Shown here one piece after another: positions 8,774-16,990 of a DNA stretch of 25,104 bases. Made by a program: the position numbers and the translations under genes. How positions within the stretch are numbered: the stretch's first letter is position 1; each line of letters opens with the position of its first letter. The stretch spans positions 1 to 25,104 of the forward strand of contig CAZJCO010000001.1 in NCBI GenBank assembly GCA_964544375.1. Direction: 5' to 3'. The stretch is from an uncultured Myxococcales bacterium. GTDB taxonomy: Bacteria > Desulfobacterota > Binatia > UBA1149 > SPBQ01. The notes beneath the pieces were generated by a model. That model saw nothing but the letters and a program-made list of their open reading frames with translations, was not told the origin of the DNA and searched no databases.

Positions 8774-9934
8774 TCAGCTTTTCGTCGCATCCCTCAGAAT
8801 TGCGGCTACCTCGGCGCGCGTGAATTCGGGTGGCGGCAGTTGGCCCTGGCTGAGCATTTTGCGAACGCGGGTGCCGCTTAGGAAAACGTGCGCATCCTTG
8901 TCGTGCGGGCAGGTCTTGGTTGACGCCATGCCTTGGCAGAGCTTGCAGTAGAAGGTGTGCTCGTAGTTGATGCAGGTGATTCCGATCTCTCCCGGCGCGA
9001 ACTCCTTGAAGATCTCCTGCGCGTCGTAAGTGCCGTAGTAATTGCCTACTCCAGCGTGGTCGCGGCCGACGATGAAATGGGTGCAGCCGTAGTTCTGACG
9101 CATGAGCGCGTGGAGGATTGCTTCTCGAGGACCGGCGTAATGCATGTTCGCCGGCAGCACCGAGAGCAGGACGCGGTCGGCCGGATAGTAGTTCTCGAGT
9201 AGCACCTGATAGCAGCGCATGCGGACATCGGCCGGGATGTCGTCGCTCTTGGTCTCGCCTACCAGCGGGTGCAGTAGCAGACCGTCGACCATCTCGAGAG
9301 CGCACTTCTGAAGATACTCGTGCGCGCGATGAACCGGATTGCGCGTTTGGAAGGCGACGATCGTACGCCATCCGCGCTCGCGAAACGCCGCGCGCGTCTG
9401 TGCTGGTTCGAGTCGGTGCTCGGCAAACGGCAAGCCCGACGGATGCCTCAGCATGGTGATCCGTCCGGCCAGGTAGATATCGCCCTGGGCGTAGACCGCG
9501 GCGACTCCGGGATGGGCCTCATCCGTCGTACGGTAGACCTTTTCGGCTTCGACGCGTTTGTCCGGCTGGTAGCGGCTGCAGAGGTGAAGGATTGCAAGCA
9601 CGTCGCCGTTTTCGTCGGCGAGGGCGACGTCGTCTCCGTCCGTCAGGCGTTCGGCTTCCTCGCAGGTGACGGTGAGGGTGATCGGAATCGGCCACACCAG
9701 ACCGTTGGCCAAGCGCATGTCCTGCACGACCGACTCGTAGTCCTCACGACCCATGAAGCCGTCGAGCGGACTGAATCCGCCGATTGCCAGCATTTCCAGA
9801 TTGGCTCGTTTGCGCGCATCCAATACCAGGCGGGGTAGGTCGGCACTCTTGTCGTCCCAGGCTGCTCGCTCTTCGTCATCGGCCATCCGATGGACCAAAC
9901 TGCCACCATGTGGCGCGATTGCGTCTTCAGGCAT
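8774..9934 (-). CDS. sat: Sulfate adenylyltransferase (ATP sulfurylase, Sat type)
   Basis: [40 protein letters not shown] motifs. 386 aa, with no APS-kinase fusion. Confidence 0.97.
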
Positions 9935-10039: not shown

Positions 10040-11473
10040 TCAGTTGGGGTAGACGCCAAGGAGCGGCCAGTACAGCAACACGGTTGCGTTGAATGCCAAC
10101 CAGGCGAGAACCCCCATCAGCATGCCGGGAACGATGATGTCGCGCAGGCGCAGATAGCCCGAGGAATAGGCAATTGCGTTGGCCGGCGTTCCAATCGGAA
10201 AAGCGAACGCGAGACCGGCGGGGATTGCGACGGCCGGCGCTACGACCGAGAGTTGAATGCCGACTTCTCGCGCGAGACCAATTCCGACTGGCATCATCAG
10301 TGCCACCACCGCCGAATTGCTGATTGCCTCGGTCAGGATCCAGGAGGTAAGGGACAACGCCGCGCAGACCGTGGGCGGCGACACGGCCCAGAGGCCGATG
10401 GTCCGGTCTGCGAGCCATCCTGCCGCGCCGGAGACGTCGAGCGCCTTGCCCAAGCAGATGGCGCCTCCGTACATCAAGATGATTCCCCAGTTGACGTATT
10501 CCTCTACATCCCGCCATGCTACCAACCGCAGCGCGAATAGAACTACGACGGCGAGAATCGCAACGTTGGCCAGCCCTAGCCGATGGCCGAAAAACACCCA
10601 GGTGGCGACTGTACAGAGCATGATCAGGCCGATCGCCTTTTCTTCAATCGTAGCTCGACCGAGGGCGGCAACGCGTTGACTGAGTACTTCTTCGGCCTGG
10701 CTGACGCTGTCGATGTCGATCGGAAACCAGTGCGTGATGACGCCGTAGCCGACCAACAACATCGCGCCGACGACCGGCAGGGCGTGCAAGCTCCAAGAGA
10801 GAAAAGTAAAGGAAGACTCTCCCGTCACCTGCTCGAGGATGGCCAATGCGAGGGGCGCCCTTCCTCCGCCCAGCAGGGTCGCCACGCCGCCGATCGTCGA
10901 GCCCCAGGCCATGGCGACGAAGAGGGCCTTGCCGTAGGAGCTCCGCAGCTGCCGCAGGCCGAGTACGGTGGCAATCTCGGCGACGATCGGGAAGTTCATT
11001 GCTGCCACGGCGTGCTCTGACATCCAGAACGAAAGGAACGCATTGAGGAGGAAGATCGCCACCAGTAGGCGGCGCGGCGAGTGGCCGAACCTTCTCAAAA
11101 CCAGCAGGCTGAGGCGGGTAGACAGACCCGACTTCATCAGGCAAGCCGCCAGGATGAACGCTCCGAGAATGAAAAAGACGGCCGAATTGCCGAACAGGGC
11201 GTAGGCTTCTTCAGAGCCGAGAACTCCGGTCAACGGCAGTAGGGCAATTGCCAGGAGGCTCGTAATCATCAGCGGGAGGACGCTGAGGGCCCAGAAGACC
11301 ACGCAAAGCGCGAACACGGCGAGCGCTTGCTGCCCTTGGGCGGACAGTCCGGCCGGAGTGTCCGCGCTAGCGATCCACCAGTAGATTGCGACGCCCGCCA
11401 GTAGACGTAACAGACGGTTCGAGCGAGAAAGCAGCACCAGCCACAAAGGGCGCGTATCGACGACGACGTCCAC
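10040..11473 (-). CDS. DASS/SLC13 family anion:Na+ symporter, probably for sulfate or another sulfur oxyanion
   Basis: Highly hydrophobic, with STIGGVATLLGG, ISNSA and PIGTPANAIAY motifs. Start moved to GTG 11473, just after the radical SAM stop. Substrate inferred from adjacency to sat. Confidence 0.88.
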   Translation of the reverse strand: MDVVVDTRPLWLVLLSRSNRLLRLLAGVAIYWWIASADTPAGLSAQGQQALAVFALCVVFWALSVLPLMITSLLAIALLPLTGVLGSEEAYALFGNSAVFFILGAFILAACLMKSGLSTRLSLLVLRRFGHSPRRLLVAIFLLNAFLSFWMSEHAVAAMNFPIVAEIATVLGLRQLRSSYGKALFVAMAWGSTIGGVATLLGGGRAPLALAILEQVTGESSFTFLSWSLHALPVVGAMLLVGYGVITHWFPIDIDSVSQAEEVLSQRVAALGRATIEEKAIGLIMLCTVATWVFFGHRLGLANVAILAVVVLFALRLVAWRDVEEYVNWGIILMYGGAICLGKALDVSGAAGWLADRTIGLWAVSPPTVCAALSLTSWILTEAISNSAVVALMMPVGIGLAREVGIQLSVVAPAVAIPAGLAFAFPIGTPANAIAYSSGYLRLRDIIVPGMLMGVLAWLAFNATVLLYWPLLGVYPN

Positions 11474-11477
11474 TTGC

Positions 11478-12704
11478 CTACAGTCTCGATGCGTTGAAGG
11501 AGTCGCTGACGCGCTTGACGCGAAGGCGCCGTCGGAGTTTGGACAGACCGCGTACCGCTCGGCTGCCAATCCGCGAACGGTAGAAACTGCTGACGGCGAC
11601 ATCGATGCGGGCTTCGTCTCCTGCAAAAAAGCGAGCCTCGATCGGGGTGATTGCGTAACCGAGATCCCGCATGTGCTGAACGTTGATGCGCGCCGCACGA
11701 ACCCGCTCGTAAAGATGCGCATAGAGTGGGGTAACCTGCTCGGGATCCGGCGGCGCATGATTGCGGAGCGCGGTTTCTTCGAGAGGGCGGAACAACGACA
11801 GCACGGGGACTACGCCGGAAGAGGTAAGTTCGTCGATCCCGGCGAGGGTGGATTCGACTGGTTCCAGCCCGACGATGAGATCGCTCCAGACGGTGCCGCT
11901 CGGAAAGATGCGAGCGGCGTATTCGAGTGCACACAAGTAGCGTTCGCGACCGATGAGCTGGTTGCGACCGCGACAGATCGTGGCGAGAATTTCGGGATCG
12001 AAAATTTGCAGACTGTAGCTCAGGGCGTCGACACCGGATGCATAGCAGCGGTCGATCCAGCGGTCGTCGGCGGGCGGATGCACTTGAACGGCGACGAGGG
12101 TGTCGAAATGGCGTTTGACCGCTCGTACGTAGGGTTCGAGGAACGCAAAACCACCGTCCTCCGCTTCGAAGTGCCCGGTATTGAAATACACGAACTCGGC
12201 GGCGCCCTCGTCAAACGCCGCGCGTACGACTTCCAGGACCTCCTCGATGGGCCGCGGGGCGCGTACGACGCCGTCGGTCTGCGCGAGTGTGCAGAACTGG
12301 CAACCAAGGCCACGTGCGCTGAAGCCGCATGCCGAAGCGGGATCGATCGATAGGTAACCCGCGTGGACGGTGGCGACCTGCCACATCGGCGTACCCTCGG
12401 TGGTAGTGGCGCAATAGAAGCGGGGTGGGGCGATCAGGCTTACGGGCACTTGGGTGCCGTCTTCGCTGTTGCAAAGGAAAAAAGCGTCGTTTTCGCAGTC
12501 CAGCACGTACGGTGAGTCGGCGGCCATCGGGGTTGCGATCGGACACTCGGCGATAATGTCTTGAGGCAGAATGACTTCGAGACCGCGGCTAGCGAAATCG
12601 CGCGCAGCGGAAGCCGGGTTCAGTGTGGCCAGATCCGCCAGCGCGGGCGACAGTCGGATTCCCTTGACGGCGACATCGATCTTCAGCTCAACGGGGTTAC
12701 GCAA
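11478..12704 (-). CDS. Radical SAM protein with atypical CX8CX2C motif (MSMEG_0568/NitD-like)
   Basis: CGFSARGLGCQFC at 12329-12291; TIM-barrel motifs GVDALSYSLQIFD, SDLIVGLE and VVPVLSLFRP. Start set at TTG 12704, with GAGG upstream and overlapping the preceding stop. Confidence 0.86.
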   Translation of the reverse strand: MRNPVELKIDVAVKGIRLSPALADLATLNPASAARDFASRGLEVILPQDIIAECPIATPMAADSPYVLDCENDAFFLCNSEDGTQVPVSLIAPPRFYCATTTEGTPMWQVATVHAGYLSIDPASACGFSARGLGCQFCTLAQTDGVVRAPRPIEEVLEVVRAAFDEGAAEFVYFNTGHFEAEDGGFAFLEPYVRAVKRHFDTLVAVQVHPPADDRWIDRCYASGVDALSYSLQIFDPEILATICRGRNQLIGRERYLCALEYAARIFPSGTVWSDLIVGLEPVESTLAGIDELTSSGVVPVLSLFRPLEETALRNHAPPDPEQVTPLYAHLYERVRAARINVQHMRDLGYAITPIEARFFAGDEARIDVAVSSFYRSRIGSRAVRGLSKLRRRLRVKRVSDSFNASRL

Positions 12705-13206
12705 GGGGCGCCTCGTCAGCCGGCTCTGTCGGCCGTCGTTGCCATCCGAGCAGGACGCCAATCGCCCGGGCTGCGGCATCGCAGGCAGCGATTGCGTGGA
12801 GCAAGGTCGAAACCGGGGCGCCCGCGGCCGCGCCGTCGTCGCTCTGCGAGCGATGGCACTCGGAGCGGCCCGACGACGGTGCCTTGCTTGCCGTCACGCC
12901 GCCGAGCAGCTTGCAGCCGACGATGCGGTACCAGACGATCGGAGTTCTGTCGTCGGGCCCCCGAGGGCTCAAGCTCTCTCCGTCGGGTTCGCGATCGGCG
13001 AGGATCAGGCAGTCCGCCCGGCGATCCGGTTCCCGCGTGACCTGGACGCCGGTCGCGCGAAGATATCGCTCGAGTATGTCTAGAGCTTCGGTGTGTCCCT
13101 GTAGCTCAACGATGCTGGCGAGCAGTCGCTCCTGGCCGCTGCCGCCGACTTCGGGAATGACGATCTGACGAGCGTAGCGCTCGATATCGCGTTCGGATAG
13201 AGGCAC
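12697..13206 (-). CDS. Degenerate ThiF/MoeB (E1-like) protein: keeps the N-terminal RYxRQ but lacks the ATP-binding motifs
   Basis: ERYARQIVIPEVGGSGQERLLAS matches the MoeB N-terminus. GxGxxG is replaced by GHTEAL, and SNLxRQ and the CxxC pairs are missing. The C-terminal helix (AIAACDAAARAIGVLLG) is kept. Confidence 0.75.
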   Translation of the reverse strand: MPLSERDIERYARQIVIPEVGGSGQERLLASIVELQGHTEALDILERYLRATGVQVTREPDRRADCLILADREPDGESLSPRGPDDRTPIVWYRIVGCKLLGGVTASKAPSSGRSECHRSQSDDGAAAGAPVSTLLHAIAACDAAARAIGVLLGWQRRPTEPADEAPLA

Positions 13207-13213
13207 GAGAACA

Positions 13214-13453
13214 TCACTCGATGACGTTCTTTTCGATCGGTTCGACTTTCACGCCCTGCTCGGCGATCCACGCAACGGCTTTCTCGATCTCGTCTTCGTC
13301 GCCTTCGAGTTCGAGGGCGACGATTCCGATGTGGTCCGAAATCGAGGCGCCGCGAATGTTCGTCACGACCCGGAACTTGTGCCCGACGTGGTAGATGATC
13401 GGTTCCTTGATCTGATCTTCGCTATAGGTGAGGTAAAATCGATAAATCGCCAT
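13214..13453 (-). CDS. Stand-alone NIL domain protein
   Basis: 79 aa: MAIYRFYLTY...KEPIIYHVGHKFRVVTNIRGASI...ALELEGDEDEIEKAVAWIAEQGVKVE. GAGGAG RBS before ATG 13453. Confidence 0.87.
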   Translation of the reverse strand: MAIYRFYLTYSEDQIKEPIIYHVGHKFRVVTNIRGASISDHIGIVALELEGDEDEIEKAVAWIAEQGVKVEPIEKNVIE

Positions 13454-13454
13454 G

Positions 13455-14423
13455 TCATGCTCCTCGAAACTGGGGTCGCGGCAGATCCTTCCAGCCAGCC
13501 CAAAGATTGGTCGACAGGTAGCGGTCGCCGAAATCACAGAAGATCGTGACGACGCAACCGCGTTCTAGTGTCGATGCCACTTCGAGAGCGCCCACCATGG
13601 CGGCGCCGCTCGACTGCCCAACGAGAATGCCGTCTTCGCGGGCCAGCCGGTAGACCATGTCGTAGGCGGCTTCGGTCGCCACCCCGATTTTGTGGTCGAG
13701 TTCCTCTTCGTGATAGATGCCGGGGACGATCGAGCTCTCCATATGTTTGAGGCCCTCGATGCCGTGGAATGCGTCGTCTGGTTCGACCGCCACGACCTGG
13801 ACGTGCCGGCTCTGTGATTTCAAGAAACGTCCGGTGCCCATCACCGTGCCGCCGGTTCCGATGCTGGCGACGAAGTGCGTTACGGCCCCCTTGGTCTGCT
13901 GCCAAATCTCCGGTCCGGTAGTCAGAAAGTGCGCCTCCGGATTGGCCTCGTTGAAGTACTGATCGGGCTTGAAGTAGCTATCGCGGTCGGCCTCGTAAAT
14001 CTCGCGGCAGCGCAGAAGCGCACCGTCGGATCCCTCGAGGCCGCTGGAATAGATTGCCTCGGCGCCGTAGGCGGCCAGGATGCGTTTGCGTTCGGTCGAG
14101 ACGTTGTCCGGCATGACCAGGCGAACGGGATACCCGAAGGCCGCGCCGATCATCGCCAGAGCAATGCCCGTGTTGCCCGACGTCGAGTCGAGAATCGTCT
14201 TTCCCGGCGTCAACTCTCCGGACTCGATGCCGCGACGGATCATGTTCCACGCGGGACGGTCCTTGACCGAACCGGCGGGATTGAAGCCTTCGAGCTTGGC
14301 GAACACCTCAACGTCAGGAGCAATCTCACGAGAGACGTTGCGGATGCGTACCAGCGGTGTCTTGCCGACGATGTCGAGAACACGCGGCACGCGAGTGCCG
14401 GCGATGGGGCTGGTCTCGCTCAT
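13455..14423 (-). CDS. cysM: PLP-dependent cysteine synthase family protein (CysM-like, probably carrier-thiocarboxylate dependent)
   Basis: VGKTPLV, KLEGFNPAGSVKDR (PLP lysine), STSGNTG, SIGTGGT and GQSSGA motifs. Follows the sulfur carrier gene. Confidence 0.9.
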   Translation of the reverse strand: MSETSPIAGTRVPRVLDIVGKTPLVRIRNVSREIAPDVEVFAKLEGFNPAGSVKDRPAWNMIRRGIESGELTPGKTILDSTSGNTGIALAMIGAAFGYPVRLVMPDNVSTERKRILAAYGAEAIYSSGLEGSDGALLRCREIYEADRDSYFKPDQYFNEANPEAHFLTTGPEIWQQTKGAVTHFVASIGTGGTVMGTGRFLKSQSRHVQVVAVEPDDAFHGIEGLKHMESSIVPGIYHEEELDHKIGVATEAAYDMVYRLAREDGILVGQSSGAAMVGALEVASTLERGCVVTIFCDFGDRYLSTNLWAGWKDLPRPQFRGA

Positions 14424-14491
14424 GCCTATCGCGCACCGATTTCCAAGCGATGGTTGCGTGTCGTCGCCGGCATCTTGGCGAGCTCCCGCTG

Positions 14492-14773
14492 CTAGCTGCG
14501 GCCGCCAGCGATGGCGGGAACGATCGACACCTCGTCTCCCTCTTTGACTGCGGAATCGAGATTCTCGAGAAAACGAATATCGTCACCGTTCAGATAGAGA
14601 TTGACGAAGCGCCGGACCGCACCGTCGGCGTCGCAGATTCTTTCTTTGATGCCCGGGTGCTTTTGTTCTAGGTCGTCGAGAATCGCGCCGATCGAGTTGC
14701 CGTCGACAGACACCGACTCTTGACCGCCGGTGAACTTCCTCAGCGGAGTGGGGATACGAACTTGAACTGCCAT
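14492..14773 (-). CDS. MoaD/ThiS/CysO family ubiquitin-like sulfur carrier with C-terminal GG-RS
   Basis: MAVQVRIPTPLRKFTGG...RRFVNLYLNGDDIRFL...VSIVPAIAGGRS*. AGGAGG RBS. Confidence 0.95.
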   Translation of the reverse strand: MAVQVRIPTPLRKFTGGQESVSVDGNSIGAILDDLEQKHPGIKERICDADGAVRRFVNLYLNGDDIRFLENLDSAVKEGDEVSIVPAIAGGRS

Positions 14774-14829
14774 CTACTGTTCCTCCTGATGAACGTGTCC
14801 TTATGCGCGAGGCGTTCGCGGCGCGCAAC

Positions 14830-16092
14830 TCATGCCGACGCGGCTTTCGCCGCCGCTTGATCGCTAAGTTTCCGATAGAGTTCGTCGAAATCATCGAGTT
14901 TTGCGGCAATTCGTCGGGGCTCGGCGACCGAGTCCATCACTGCCTCGAGGGTCTTGTATCCGTTCCCCGTAACACTGATTACGATCGATTCGTCCGCTGG
15001 AATCCTCCCCTGTTCGATCAGTTTCTTAGCGACCGCCACGGTGGTACCGCCCGCCGGCTCCGTGAAGATTCCTTCGGTTTCGGCAAGCAGCTTGATCCCG
15101 GCGACGATCTCTTCGTCGGTAGCCGCTTCTCCCCAGCCGCCACTGTTGCGGACCGCCTTGAGCACGTAGTAACCGTCGGCCGGGTTGCCGATGGCGATCG
15201 ACTTCGCGATCGTGTTCGGCTTTACCGGTTCGATCAAGTCGCTCTCGCGATGCAACGCGTGAACGACCGGTGCGCATCCGGCCGCCTGAGCCGTGTAGAT
15301 TTTCCACGGGCTGTCCTTTACCAGACCGACCGCGACCAGTTCTTCGAAGGCCTTGGCGACCTTGGGCAGGATCGTGCCGCCGGCGGTAGGAACCACGATG
15401 TGACGTGGAAGCTTCCACCCCAACTGCTCGGCGACTTCGAAGCCGTAGGTCTTGGCGCCTTCGGTGTAGAACGGCCGCAGATTGATGTTGGCGAATGCCC
15501 ACTGGTACTTGTCCGCGATCTCCGTGCACAGGCGGTTGACGTCGTCGTAATTGCCCGAGATCGCGACGGTCGTTGGCTGATAGACGGCCGAACCGATGAC
15601 TTTACCGCGCTCGAGATTGTCCGGAATGAAAATGAAACAGCGAAGACCAGCGCGCGCCGCATGGGCGGACACCGAGTTGGCGAGATTGCCCGTCGAGGCG
15701 CAGGAAACCGTGTCGAAACCGAACTCGATTGCTTTGGTAATTGCTACCGATACGACACGATCCTTGTAAGAAAAGGTCGGGTGGTTGACCGAATCGTCCT
15801 TGACGTAGAGCTCCTTGACCCCCAGCGCTTCTGCCAGCCGGTCCGCACGAACCAGCGGGGTGCAGCCGGAATGCAGACCGATCTTCGGCTCGCTCTCAAT
15901 CGGGAGCAACTCCCGATAACGCCATAGATTGCGCGCGCGTCCTTCGATTTTTCGCCTTGTAACGGTCGACGCGATGGCTTCGTAGTCGTAACAGACCTCC
16001 AGCGGTCCGAAGCAGAATTCGCAGACGTGATGAGGGCCCAGTTCGTAAGCCTCACCGCACTCGCGGCACTTCAATCCGGTGATCAGTGACAT
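14830..16092 (-). CDS. thrC: Threonine synthase-like PLP enzyme (fold type II) with N-terminal Zn ribbon
   Basis: CRECG...CEFC, LWRYRELLP, PTFSYKDR (PLP lysine), CASTGNLA, EGAKT, TGNGYK. Family is secure; the actual reaction is uncertain (see findings). Confidence 0.9.
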   Translation of the reverse strand: MSLITGLKCRECGEAYELGPHHVCEFCFGPLEVCYDYEAIASTVTRRKIEGRARNLWRYRELLPIESEPKIGLHSGCTPLVRADRLAEALGVKELYVKDDSVNHPTFSYKDRVVSVAITKAIEFGFDTVSCASTGNLANSVSAHAARAGLRCFIFIPDNLERGKVIGSAVYQPTTVAISGNYDDVNRLCTEIADKYQWAFANINLRPFYTEGAKTYGFEVAEQLGWKLPRHIVVPTAGGTILPKVAKAFEELVAVGLVKDSPWKIYTAQAAGCAPVVHALHRESDLIEPVKPNTIAKSIAIGNPADGYYVLKAVRNSGGWGEAATDEEIVAGIKLLAETEGIFTEPAGGTTVAVAKKLIEQGRIPADESIVISVTGNGYKTLEAVMDSVAEPRRIAAKLDDFDELYRKLSDQAAAKAASA

Positions 16093-16826
16093 GCTTCAGG
16101 CCTCCTTGCTTGCTCGCGATGCAGACGGCTGCAGCAGCGGCACCGCGGATCTCGAGGAAAATCGACCAGTCTCCAGCGCTGGCCGCGAGCTTGGTAGATC
16201 GTCAGGACACCCGGGCGCCATGCTGGATCTCCGGTCAGCGCTCGCACCGCCGAAAGCGCTTGTACGAAGCCGATGACTCCGGCAACCGGGGAGAGTATGC
16301 CGAGGCGGTCGCATCCTTCTGGAAGTTCGCTGCCGGCCTCACGCGAAGGAAAAGCACACTCGAGACAGGCCGAGCGTCCGGGGTCGATGCCCATGGCCTG
16401 TCCTGCGGTGCGCACCACGCCTCCGTAGGACATCGGCCGACCGACTTCTGTAGCGGTTGCGTTGATGAGAAACTTACTTGCCGGGTCGTCCGTGGCGTCG
16501 ATGATGAAGTCGTGGCTGCGCATCAGTTCGGCAGCGTTGCTTTGTTCGAAACGTCCGACCAGCGGCTGCAGCCGGCAGCTTCGGAACATCCCGGCCAGGG
16601 TCGCCGCCGCGGCCTCCGCCTTGGGGCGGCCGATGGCGTCGTCGTCGAACAGGATTTGTCGCTGCAGGTTCGACAACTCGACCACGTCCGCGTCGAGCAG
16701 GGTGACATGCCCCACGCCGCCGCGCGCCAGTCCGAGCGCGGCGGGACATCCGAGCGCACCGCAACCTACGACGAGTACCCGCGCCTGGGCCAGGATCTCG
16801 GCACTGTTGTCGGTCTCTGCGTACAA
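16083..16826 (-). CDS. ThiF/MoeB/HesA family E1-like adenylyltransferase lacking the N-terminal RYxRQ helix
   Basis: VLVVGCGALG, LLDADVVELSNLQRQ, GRPKA, IIDATDD, CLEC, EGCDRLG, RDPRCRCC. The track's ATG 16880 lies inside the riboswitch, so the likely start is in-frame TTG 16826 preceded by AAGAGG. Confidence 0.86.
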   Translation of the reverse strand: MYAETDNSAEILAQARVLVVGCGALGCPAALGLARGGVGHVTLLDADVVELSNLQRQILFDDDAIGRPKAEAAAATLAGMFRSCRLQPLVGRFEQSNAAELMRSHDFIIDATDDPASKFLINATATEVGRPMSYGGVVRTAGQAMGIDPGRSACLECAFPSREAGSELPEGCDRLGILSPVAGVIGFVQALSAVRALTGDPAWRPGVLTIYQARGQRWRLVDFPRDPRCRCCSRLHREQARRPEACH

Positions 16827-16859
16827 AAAAACCTCTTCCGAGAATGGCAAGGAAGAGGC
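16825..16859 (-). terminator. Intrinsic terminator of the riboswitch expression platform
   Basis: Minus strand GCCUCUUCC-uugccauucuc-GGAAGAGGU (9-bp stem), ending in a run of 7 U. Confidence 0.9.
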
Positions 16860-16873
16860 TGCTCGCTTTCCTC

Positions 16874-16990
16874 GCCTCATCTCTCGCCCTTTCGTCTCGG
16901 GCAGTAGGATTTAGCACCAGCACCCACCTAGGGGCGGGCCGGTTGCTGTGGCTTCGCAGGGCCTATTCCCTCCACCACTCTCAATAAGGC
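16874..16990 (-). ncRNA. SAM-I (S-box) riboswitch aptamer
   Basis: Minus strand GCCUUAUUGAGAGUGGUGGAGGGAAUAGGCCCUGCGAAGCCACAGCAACC...GGUGCUAAAUCC...GAUGAGGC. P1 GCCUUAU/AUGAGGC, P2 GUGGU/GCCAC with kink-turn GA pairs, P3 GCAACC/GGUGC, P4 GCCC/GGGC. The pseudoknot shows a compensatory UAG/CUA in place of the usual UGG/CCA. Confidence 0.93.

Follow-up and report, generated by a model that had tools for sequence, protein, structure and literature searches.

Can a bacterial E1-like enzyme that lacks the N-terminal arginine helix of its family obtain that helix from a second gene? The question is raised by a sulfur gene cluster in a 25,104-nt stretch (hereafter the window) of contig CAZJCO010000001.1, GenBank assembly GCA_964544375.1, from an uncultured bacterium of the Binatia. 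The cluster encodes two E1-like proteins (Table 1): one of ThiF/MoeB type with 247 amino acids (aa), referred to below as the long protein, and one of 169 aa, referred to as the short protein or the partner. Bacterial ThiF/MoeB-type E1-like enzymes are described as symmetric homodimers (PMC12355090, PMC12596934, PMC10557695), and all such bacterial proteins known earlier are homodimers, with BilD as the exception (PMC10557695). Both window proteins belong to the ThiF/MoeB superfamily, and each lacks one defining feature of the canonical homodimeric enzyme.

According to the sequence comparisons and structure models reported here, the long and short proteins probably form an active/inactive E1 heterodimer within a sulfur operon controlled by S-adenosylmethionine (SAM); we put the probability of this reading at roughly three in four. 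It is supported by the motif complement of the two proteins, conservation, co-occurrence, the predicted fold, and a natural fusion, from which physical dimerisation, a contact of the Arg in trans, and dependence of activity on the partner can be inferred.

Complementary motifs in the two E1-like proteins

The long protein matches Pfam ThiF at 199 bits, covering profile positions 15–238 only. A phmmer search against the PDB aligns its residues 9–233 with residues 26–248 of Escherichia coli MoeB (E = 1e-35) and 25–244 of ThiF (E = 5e-34), which leaves residues 1–25 of MoeB without a counterpart. The P-loop (GCGALG), SNLQRQ, the Lys, IDATDD, and both Zn pairs (CLEC and CRCC) are all present, a further Cys aligns with the crossover-loop Cys of MoeB, and the motif set is invariant across 14 relatives (14-member alignment). 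Compared with the Pfam profile, MoeB, and ThiF, the long protein thus has the adenylation fold and the Zn site and is missing the N-terminal RYxRQ helix, which is also absent from 113 of its 120 closest homologues.

The short protein has no Pfam match. NCBIfam MoeB models match its residues 2–54 with their N-terminal part (E = 1e-5), and its residues 3–38 align with residues 3–40 of Uba4/ThiF (E = 0.013), so that the sequence resemblance to E1 is confined to the first ~55 residues (ERYARQ...GxxGQ). The position of the P-loop reads QGHTEA, and neither SNLxRQ nor the CxxC zinc cysteines are found in the protein. The motifs that bind ATP, Zn, and the carrier are gone. Besides a Rossmann-like core, the protein retains ERYARQ with its helix and GxxGQ near the N-terminus, and a long helix (AACDAAA...LLG) at the C-terminus. 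The initial annotation of this DNA had described the same distribution of motifs, with P-loop, SNLQRQ, DATDD, both CxxC pairs, and the MoeB-type Cys on one protein and ERYARQ on the other, and the alignments reproduce it in full.

Its premise, an Arg that acts in trans, agrees with published work as well. In ThiF and MoeB, Arg11 and Arg14, respectively, reach in from the adjacent subunit, and the inactive Tcd1 gives Arg59 to Tcd2 (PMC13139853); each ThiF active site is completed by the N-terminus of the other monomer (PMC12596934); and the inactive domain of BilD gives Arg9 to the active one (PMC10557695).

A protein search returned 15 homologues of the short protein, 154–178 aa long and 32–43% identical. 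In the resulting 16-sequence alignment Y11, A12, R13, Q14, G21, G24, Q25, L28, G37, G53, and G103 are invariant, and the C-terminal helix is conserved. A profile search covering 1.8 billion representative sequences extends the family to 54 or more clusters (E ≤ 1e-30), almost all of them 150–190 aa long and with full-length coverage. In a motif tally for the Arg, [YFW]x[RK][QH] occurs in 153 of 157 short-family sequences. SNLxRQ occurs in one of the 157, namely in the active domain of a fusion protein (see below), and 22 of 23 apparent P-loop matches are either the GxGAAGQ loop that follows the Arg helix or degenerate, without SNLxRQ.

Co-occurrence of helix loss and partner gene

A scan with one genome per species yielded 80 loci, which were classified by script; the co-occurrence test comprised about 85 loci in all. 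Contigs encoding the short family share the same gene order, the same riboswitch, and a helix-less E1 of 237–243 aa. Among 18 operon loci of the cysteine/methionine type, 15 have a helix-less E1, and each of these 15 has a second E1-like gene after NIL or CysM, with [RY]Y[AS]RQ...GxxGQ and no P-loop. The remaining three (L013, L017, and L020) encode an E1 with RYSRQ. L013 is cut by the contig end; in L017 and L020, which are intact and of the same layout, no second E1-like gene is found within ±8 kb, even by a hidden Markov model search. All five Myxococcus loci (L021, L022, L032, L049, and L051) combine a helix-less E1 with ThiS and a 213-aa partner that has RYSRQ and no P-loop.

As a result, every helix-less active E1 gene in the fetched loci (20/20) adjoins a helix-bearing E1-like gene without P-loop, and no such partner is found in the ~64 loci with helix-bearing E1 genes, L017 and L020 included. 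Since the pair tracks in every locus compared, helix loss and presence of the partner are tightly coupled. These comparative data argue against a symmetric two-site homodimer of the long protein.

The Myxococcus pair provides a second context for a split E1, in cultured and experimentally tractable strains, which makes the idea of a split E1 genetically testable. Its cluster (~7.9–12.3 kb per locus) continues with genes for an APS (adenosine 5'-phosphosulfate)-kinase-like protein and a PP-loop ATPase, and a two-component system adjoins.

Natural fusion of the two modules with TusA

The short-family profile search also matched residues 331–398 of a 469-aa protein, P0258. In P0258, an active ThiF domain without the helix is followed by TusA and then by a C-terminal domain that begins ...LERYARQVVLPEVGLAGQ and has no P-loop. 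A search with P0258 produced a family whose source-named members all belong to Planctomycetota (P0280–P0355; L089, 3561–4970; L092, 6001–7407). None of the 73 fusion proteins of at least 400 aa has an N-terminal helix, and 72 of them carry a C-terminal [YF][AS]RQ domain, with P-loop and SNLxRQ in none of those domains. R338 is invariant in the 72 proteins, and hhalign assigns the short family to the C-terminal module at a probability of 99.1%. The occurrence of the same two modules in one chain is classical fusion evidence that they act together physically.

In another protein, P0256, a dead E1-like domain is fused to TusA alone. Because relatives fuse the dead subunit to TusA, a likely extra role for it is that of a docking platform for sulfur delivery.

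The members of the fusion family are ~440–570 aa long and are annotated only as 'ThiF family adenylyltransferase'. No ThiS gene is found beside the fusion gene in the two contigs inspected (L089 and L092).

Structure models

The AlphaFold2 model of the short protein (14-sequence alignment) has a predicted local distance difference test score (pLDDT) of 79.6 and a predicted template modelling score (pTM) of 0.74. The model has two helices at the N-terminus and one long helix at the C-terminus, together with a beta-hairpin and a small parallel sheet that is accompanied by helices; confidence is low at residues ~107–129. Foldseek ranks E. coli ThiF and MoeB first among its PDB matches (E = 2e-5, probability 1.0, query-normalised TM-score 0.6), followed by Uba4, PaaA, the E1-like domains of LynD and TruD, SAE1, and APPBP1. 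The short protein is thus predicted to be a reduced ThiF fold.

As for the fusion protein, its model reaches a pLDDT of 89.6 and a pTM of 0.89. The underlying alignment contained the 72 members of the fusion family; a block alignment was discarded, MAFFT having set the short family on the N-terminal domain (YARQ against NLPRQ). The Arg-helix blocks have pLDDT values of 91–92 in the fusion model versus 76 and 65 in the isolated short protein. As read from pTM and pLDDT, the model implies a confident arrangement of the three fusion domains.

Proposed mechanism and the role of the partner

In the proposed heterodimer the long protein would contribute the complete adenylation site (P-loop, Arg, Lys, Asp, Zn site, and crossover-loop Cys) together with the carrier-binding C-terminal sheet. 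It would bind ATP-Mg and the carrier and adenylate the C-terminal Gly of the latter. The short protein would occupy the position of the second protomer without binding ATP, Zn, or carrier, and its N-terminal helix, with Arg13, would insert into the single active site of the long protein. Sulfur delivery would then give a thiocarboxylate for the CysM-like and ThrC-like enzymes, and SAM would switch off this carrier-based route to cysteine and homocysteine.

Two points weigh against this reading. The loci compared are not phylogenetically independent and represent only about 3–4 independent contexts. In addition, the Arg fingers of MoeB and ThiF and R59 of Tcd1 are not essential (PMC13139853). 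Because of the latter, the catalytic weight of the Arg is not established, and the main role of the partner might be structural (dimer stability, a platform for the sulfur donor) rather than catalytic. The initial annotation had proposed an obligate active/inactive heterodimer. Its pairing of the two proteins agrees with conservation, co-occurrence, the longer paralogues described below, the fusion, and the fold; the word 'obligate', however, goes beyond the evidence, given that the fingers of related enzymes are non-essential.

The same dispensability favours the best-placed alternative, which nevertheless appears unlikely: that the long protein, like E. coli TcdA, forms a lone homodimer and manages without an Arg finger, while the short one serves as a sulfur-donor adaptor or scaffold, or as a regulator titrating the E1. 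The donor brought to the E1 or to the carrier would be the NIL protein, the radical SAM enzyme, or a TusA-like module. This would fit the gene arrangement, in which the partner always has NIL as its neighbour and shares translational coupling with the radical SAM gene, as well as other lineages, where it is fused to TusA (P0256) or placed beyond it (the fusion protein). A lone homodimer, however, gives no account of why the partner is present exactly where the helix is lost and never where it is kept, nor of the invariance of the Arg across split and fused forms. A scaffold role is also compatible with heterodimerisation and hence is no true alternative to it.

Conservation and selection on the short gene

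The ratio of nonsynonymous to synonymous substitution rates (dN/dS) of the short gene, obtained from one close pair (L090 and L091, 84% amino-acid identity), is 0.35 overall, with 0.16 for codons 1–55 and 0.42 for the rest. The neighbouring genes have lower values (0.17 for NIL and 0.065 for CysM). In Myxococcus, the partner shows 0.16–0.30 versus 0.17–0.23 for the catalytic genes. The short gene is under constraint, which is strongest in the helix region, and is no pseudogene.

It is therefore very improbable that the short open reading frame (ORF) is what is left of a decaying thiF duplicate, a pseudogene, or otherwise non-functional. Such a view could point to the missing Pfam match, the loss of all catalytic motifs, the poorly modelled residues ~107–129, and a dN/dS above that of the neighbours; yet it is effectively refuted by the 54 or more clusters, the conserved length, the invariant residues, and a dN/dS well below 1. 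Moreover, synteny is conserved at an identity of only 32–43%, and the equivalent domain is retained in the fusion proteins. The check on co-conservation and dN/dS suggested with the initial annotation thus yields a conserved family, which is not decaying.

Start of the long gene

No RYxRQ is found in the longest stop-to-stop frame of the long protein, which reaches 16910, and none is encoded in any frame upstream of the gene, where the DNA consists of a riboswitch and its terminator. The initial annotation had stated that the upstream DNA leaves no room for the helix, which is consistent with a protein that starts at about residue 26 of MoeB. The least credible explanation, an ordinary full-length ThiF whose helix escaped notice owing to a misplaced start codon, a frameshift, or a faulty assembly, has a precedent in locus L024 but is refuted for the window by the well-scoring riboswitch and terminator without an RYxRQ frame, and the 113 helix-less homologues, which come from many independent assemblies, begin alike.

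In L024 (7827–8963; Phycisphaerales, nanopore metagenome-assembled genome), the helix sequence RYDRQ... is encoded in another frame, and this frame overlaps the E1 ORF at its start. This split of frames is most simply explained as a frameshift error in the long-read assembly.

The terminator stem has 8 bp and is GC-rich: CCTCTTCC (16858–16851) pairs with GGAAGAGG (16839–16832) across a loop of 11 nt. A run of seven T (U7) follows at 16831–16825, and the TTG start of the long gene at 16826 overlaps its end. The 3' stem GGAAGAGG likely doubles as Shine-Dalgarno sequence for this start. Because of the 11-nt loop, a simple terminator scan missed the terminator, which is revealed by the sequence together with the minimum free energy (MFE) fold.

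Many database homologues (P0021, P0022, P0024, P0027, P0028, P0045, P0050, P0052, and P0062) have miscalled N-termini '...SEEVFLY', which represent the translated terminator stem and U-tract (cf. window 16826–16880), while properly called homologues start with M/L-Y at the end of 'EEVFLY'. This spurious but conserved peptide arises because gene callers often set the start codon of the E1 within the riboswitch or its terminator.

Origin of the partner

In loci L008, L012, and L050 the partners are 236–247 aa long, match Pfam ThiF, and align end to end with MoeB/ThiF (E = 1e-23 to 1e-30, ~30% identity). They retain the CxxC pairs and have lost the P-loop, SNLxRQ, and the Asp motif. Partner size thus decreases from ~240 aa through 212 aa (L006) to 169 aa in the window, whose closest relatives have ~155–180 aa. 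Judging from these alignments, the partner is a product of duplication and complementary degeneration. Gene fission was considered as well and is ruled out, since the longer partners are complete ThiF paralogues rather than N-terminal fragments.

A rough neighbour-joining tree of the E1 catalytic domains, built without support values, contains two groups of helix-less catalytic genes. Those of L008, L012, and L050, which have the least degenerate partners, cluster beside the full-length operon E1s of L013, L017, and L020. More than one origin of the split is therefore possible.

A broader and rather improbable idea is that asymmetric single-site E1s are an old, recurrent bacterial design and no speciality of eukaryotes or defence systems. 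In Binatota, Methylomirabilota, Myxococcota, and Planctomycetota, sulfur-carrier E1s would repeatedly have converted one protomer to a dead subunit that provides the Arg helix and docks the sulfur donor (TusA, NIL, or radical SAM, in a directional relay), and one of these lineages would perhaps be homologous to the ancestor of the eukaryotic inactive/active E1s.

Comparison with known systems

Regarding eukaryotic E1s, APPBP1(NAE1)–UBA3 and SAE1–SAE2(UBA2) likewise consist of two paralogous subunits of adenylation fold, one of them without nucleotide binding. According to the initial annotation, the one active site of each pair receives an N-terminal Arg from the inactive subunit (APPBP1 or SAE1). 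Chains of both SAE1 and APPBP1 appear among the structures matched by the short protein. In contrast, the window pair is bacterial, goes with a ThiS/MoaD-type carrier in cysteine/methionine biosynthesis, and has no E2. Its catalytic subunit has neither a catalytic-Cys domain nor a ubiquitin-fold domain, and its inactive subunit, with only 169 aa, no longer has the C-terminal sheet or the Zn/crossover region. The two systems are probably of independent (convergent) origin.

Yeast Tcd1–Tcd2, a ThiF-family dehydratase for cyclic N6-threonylcarbamoyladenosine (ct6A), is similar in that an inactive paralogue lends an Arg finger (Arg59) to an active one, and both genes are required in vivo (PMC13139853). 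It differs in being eukaryotic and acting on tRNA; furthermore, Tcd1 has a full-size fold and can form homodimers, and the effect of R59A is small. In BilD of the Bil antiviral operons (PMC10557695), bacterial inactive and active domains form a pseudo-dimer, with Arg9 coming from the inactive domain. BilD, however, is a single chain with the inactive domain first, a mobile CYS domain, an E2 partner, and a role in defence, whereas the window system has two genes and the Planctomycetota fusion has the opposite order with TusA in between.

MoeB, ThiF, and MoeZ (of the CysO–CysM and MetO–MetM systems) are close in sequence to the long protein (E = 1e-35 to MoeB) and share the operon logic of carrier, CysM, and ThrC-like enzyme, but they are symmetric homodimers with the RYxRQ helix in every chain, and MoeZ adds a rhodanese domain. 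Finally, the E1-like domains of YcaO systems (TruD, LynD, and McbB) are degenerate, non-adenylating E1 folds that also serve as partner modules, TruD and LynD being among the structural matches; their task, however, is to bind leader peptides for the YcaO enzyme, and they have no active E1 as partner.

In the literature searched, which was of limited scope, no paper describes a two-gene asymmetric or heterodimeric bacterial E1 for sulfur carriers, or a fusion of ThiF, TusA, and dead E1. The parallel to the eukaryotic division of labour drawn in the initial annotation holds for the layout; as a first bacterial case it does not, because BilD is already known. So far the inactive/active layout has been treated as a hallmark of eukaryotic E1s and the Bil defence E1. 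If the heterodimer is real, the series of intermediates (from ~240 to ~155 aa, plus the fused form) would show how a homodimer becomes a heterodimer by duplication and complementary loss, and the pair would offer a minimal system for the contribution of the second protomer and its Arg finger. In Binatota, Methylomirabilota, Myxococcus, and Planctomycetota, many ThiF genes with a wrong start and many 'hypothetical proteins' would also receive a corrected annotation.

Operon, riboswitch, and pathway

The gene cluster spans ~8.8–17.0 kb of the window on the minus strand, with the riboswitch first and the ATP sulfurylase last (Table 1). A SAM-I riboswitch is also found 5' of the E1 gene in loci L001 and L005.

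Table 1. Features of the minus-strand cluster, listed in the direction of transcription (positions refer to the window; PLP, pyridoxal 5'-phosphate)
Feature	Position	Strand	Evidence
SAM-I riboswitch aptamer, operon leader	16874..16990	-	Rfam RF00162, 70.9 bits, E = 5.7e-15
Intrinsic terminator of the riboswitch expression platform	16825..16858	-	Sequence and MFE fold
Catalytic E1 subunit, ThiF/MoeB adenylation domain without RYxRQ helix, 247 aa (long protein; role predicted)	16083..16826	-	Pfam, phmmer, NCBIfam, homologues
Threonine-synthase-like PLP enzyme with N-terminal Zn ribbon	14830..16092	-	Pfam PALP; NCBIfam threonine synthase PRK08197, 304 bits
ThiS/MoaD/SAMP1-type sulfur carrier ending AIAGG-RS	14492..14773	-	Pfam ThiS; NCBIfam SAMP1, 66.6 bits
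CysM-type cysteine synthase	13455..14423	-	Pfam PALP; TIGR01138 cysM, 382 bits
NIL-domain protein, 79 aa	13214..13453	-	Pfam NIL; synteny
Degenerate E1-like partner, 169 aa (short protein)	12697..13206	-	Alignments, profile searches, structure model
Variant radical SAM protein, probable start TTG 12705	11478..12705	-	Pfam; NCBIfam NF045502 / MSMEG_0568-like; gene coordinates of relatives
Na+/sulfate-type symporter, start approximate	10040..11490	-	Pfam Na_sulph_symp; relatives of 478–492 aa
ATP sulfurylase, last gene of the cluster on the minus strand	8774..9934	-	Pfam ATP-sulfurylase and PUA_2

The genes around the partner are tightly packed. The NIL gene lies directly 5' of the partner gene in all syntenic relatives, and in the window the GTG start of the partner is 8 nt past the NIL stop. 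With the TTG start, the radical SAM gene overlaps the stop of the partner by 8 nt (TTGCGTAA), as in L003 and L005, and the product has 408 aa, the same as in L003. An ATG start at 12779, which would give an overlap of 83 nt, is less likely.

A carrier with C-terminal GG is encoded beside CysM-type and ThrC-like PLP enzymes, a feature of thiocarboxylate-dependent synthesis of cysteine and homocysteine, for which a MetO/MetM homocysteine pathway has been described (preprint 10.1101/2024.10.14.618325). Gene composition suggests that the operon would make cysteine (CysO/CysM type) and homocysteine (MetO/MetM type) via the carrier thiocarboxylate, and feedback control by SAM fits such a role. The threonine-synthase-like enzyme is a candidate MetM-type homocysteine synthase that would use this thiocarboxylate, or may be a threonine synthase.

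NIL, the variant radical SAM protein, the sulfate-type symporter, and ATP sulfurylase accompany the E1 pair in many relatives, which points to an unusual pathway leading from sulfate to the thiocarboxylate of the carrier. No cysteine desulfurase is found among the window proteins scanned, and no match to the JAMM peptidase (Mec) among the 19 scanned. Neither E1-like protein has a rhodanese domain according to Pfam and NCBIfam, unlike MoeZ. Genes for rhodanese and JAMM proteins may be located elsewhere in the genome. Depending on the genome, the carrier ends with AIAGG followed by 0–6 further residues (RS in the window, 14492–14500; ThiS genes of L001–L088), and since it can run past AIAGG, some genomes need a C-terminal peptidase.

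Many helix-less E1s (P0018–P0060; Myxococcus L021–L051) share a conserved tail RRQxxC[HPR][SLT] after the second Zn CxxC. In the window, the tail of the long protein (16083–16130) reads ...ARRPEACH, and in Myxococcus ...PEACAT. This tail contains a Cys in 59 of the 120 homologues closest to the long protein; the Cys could be a mobile persulfide carrier that replaces the rhodanese domain of MoeZ/Uba4.

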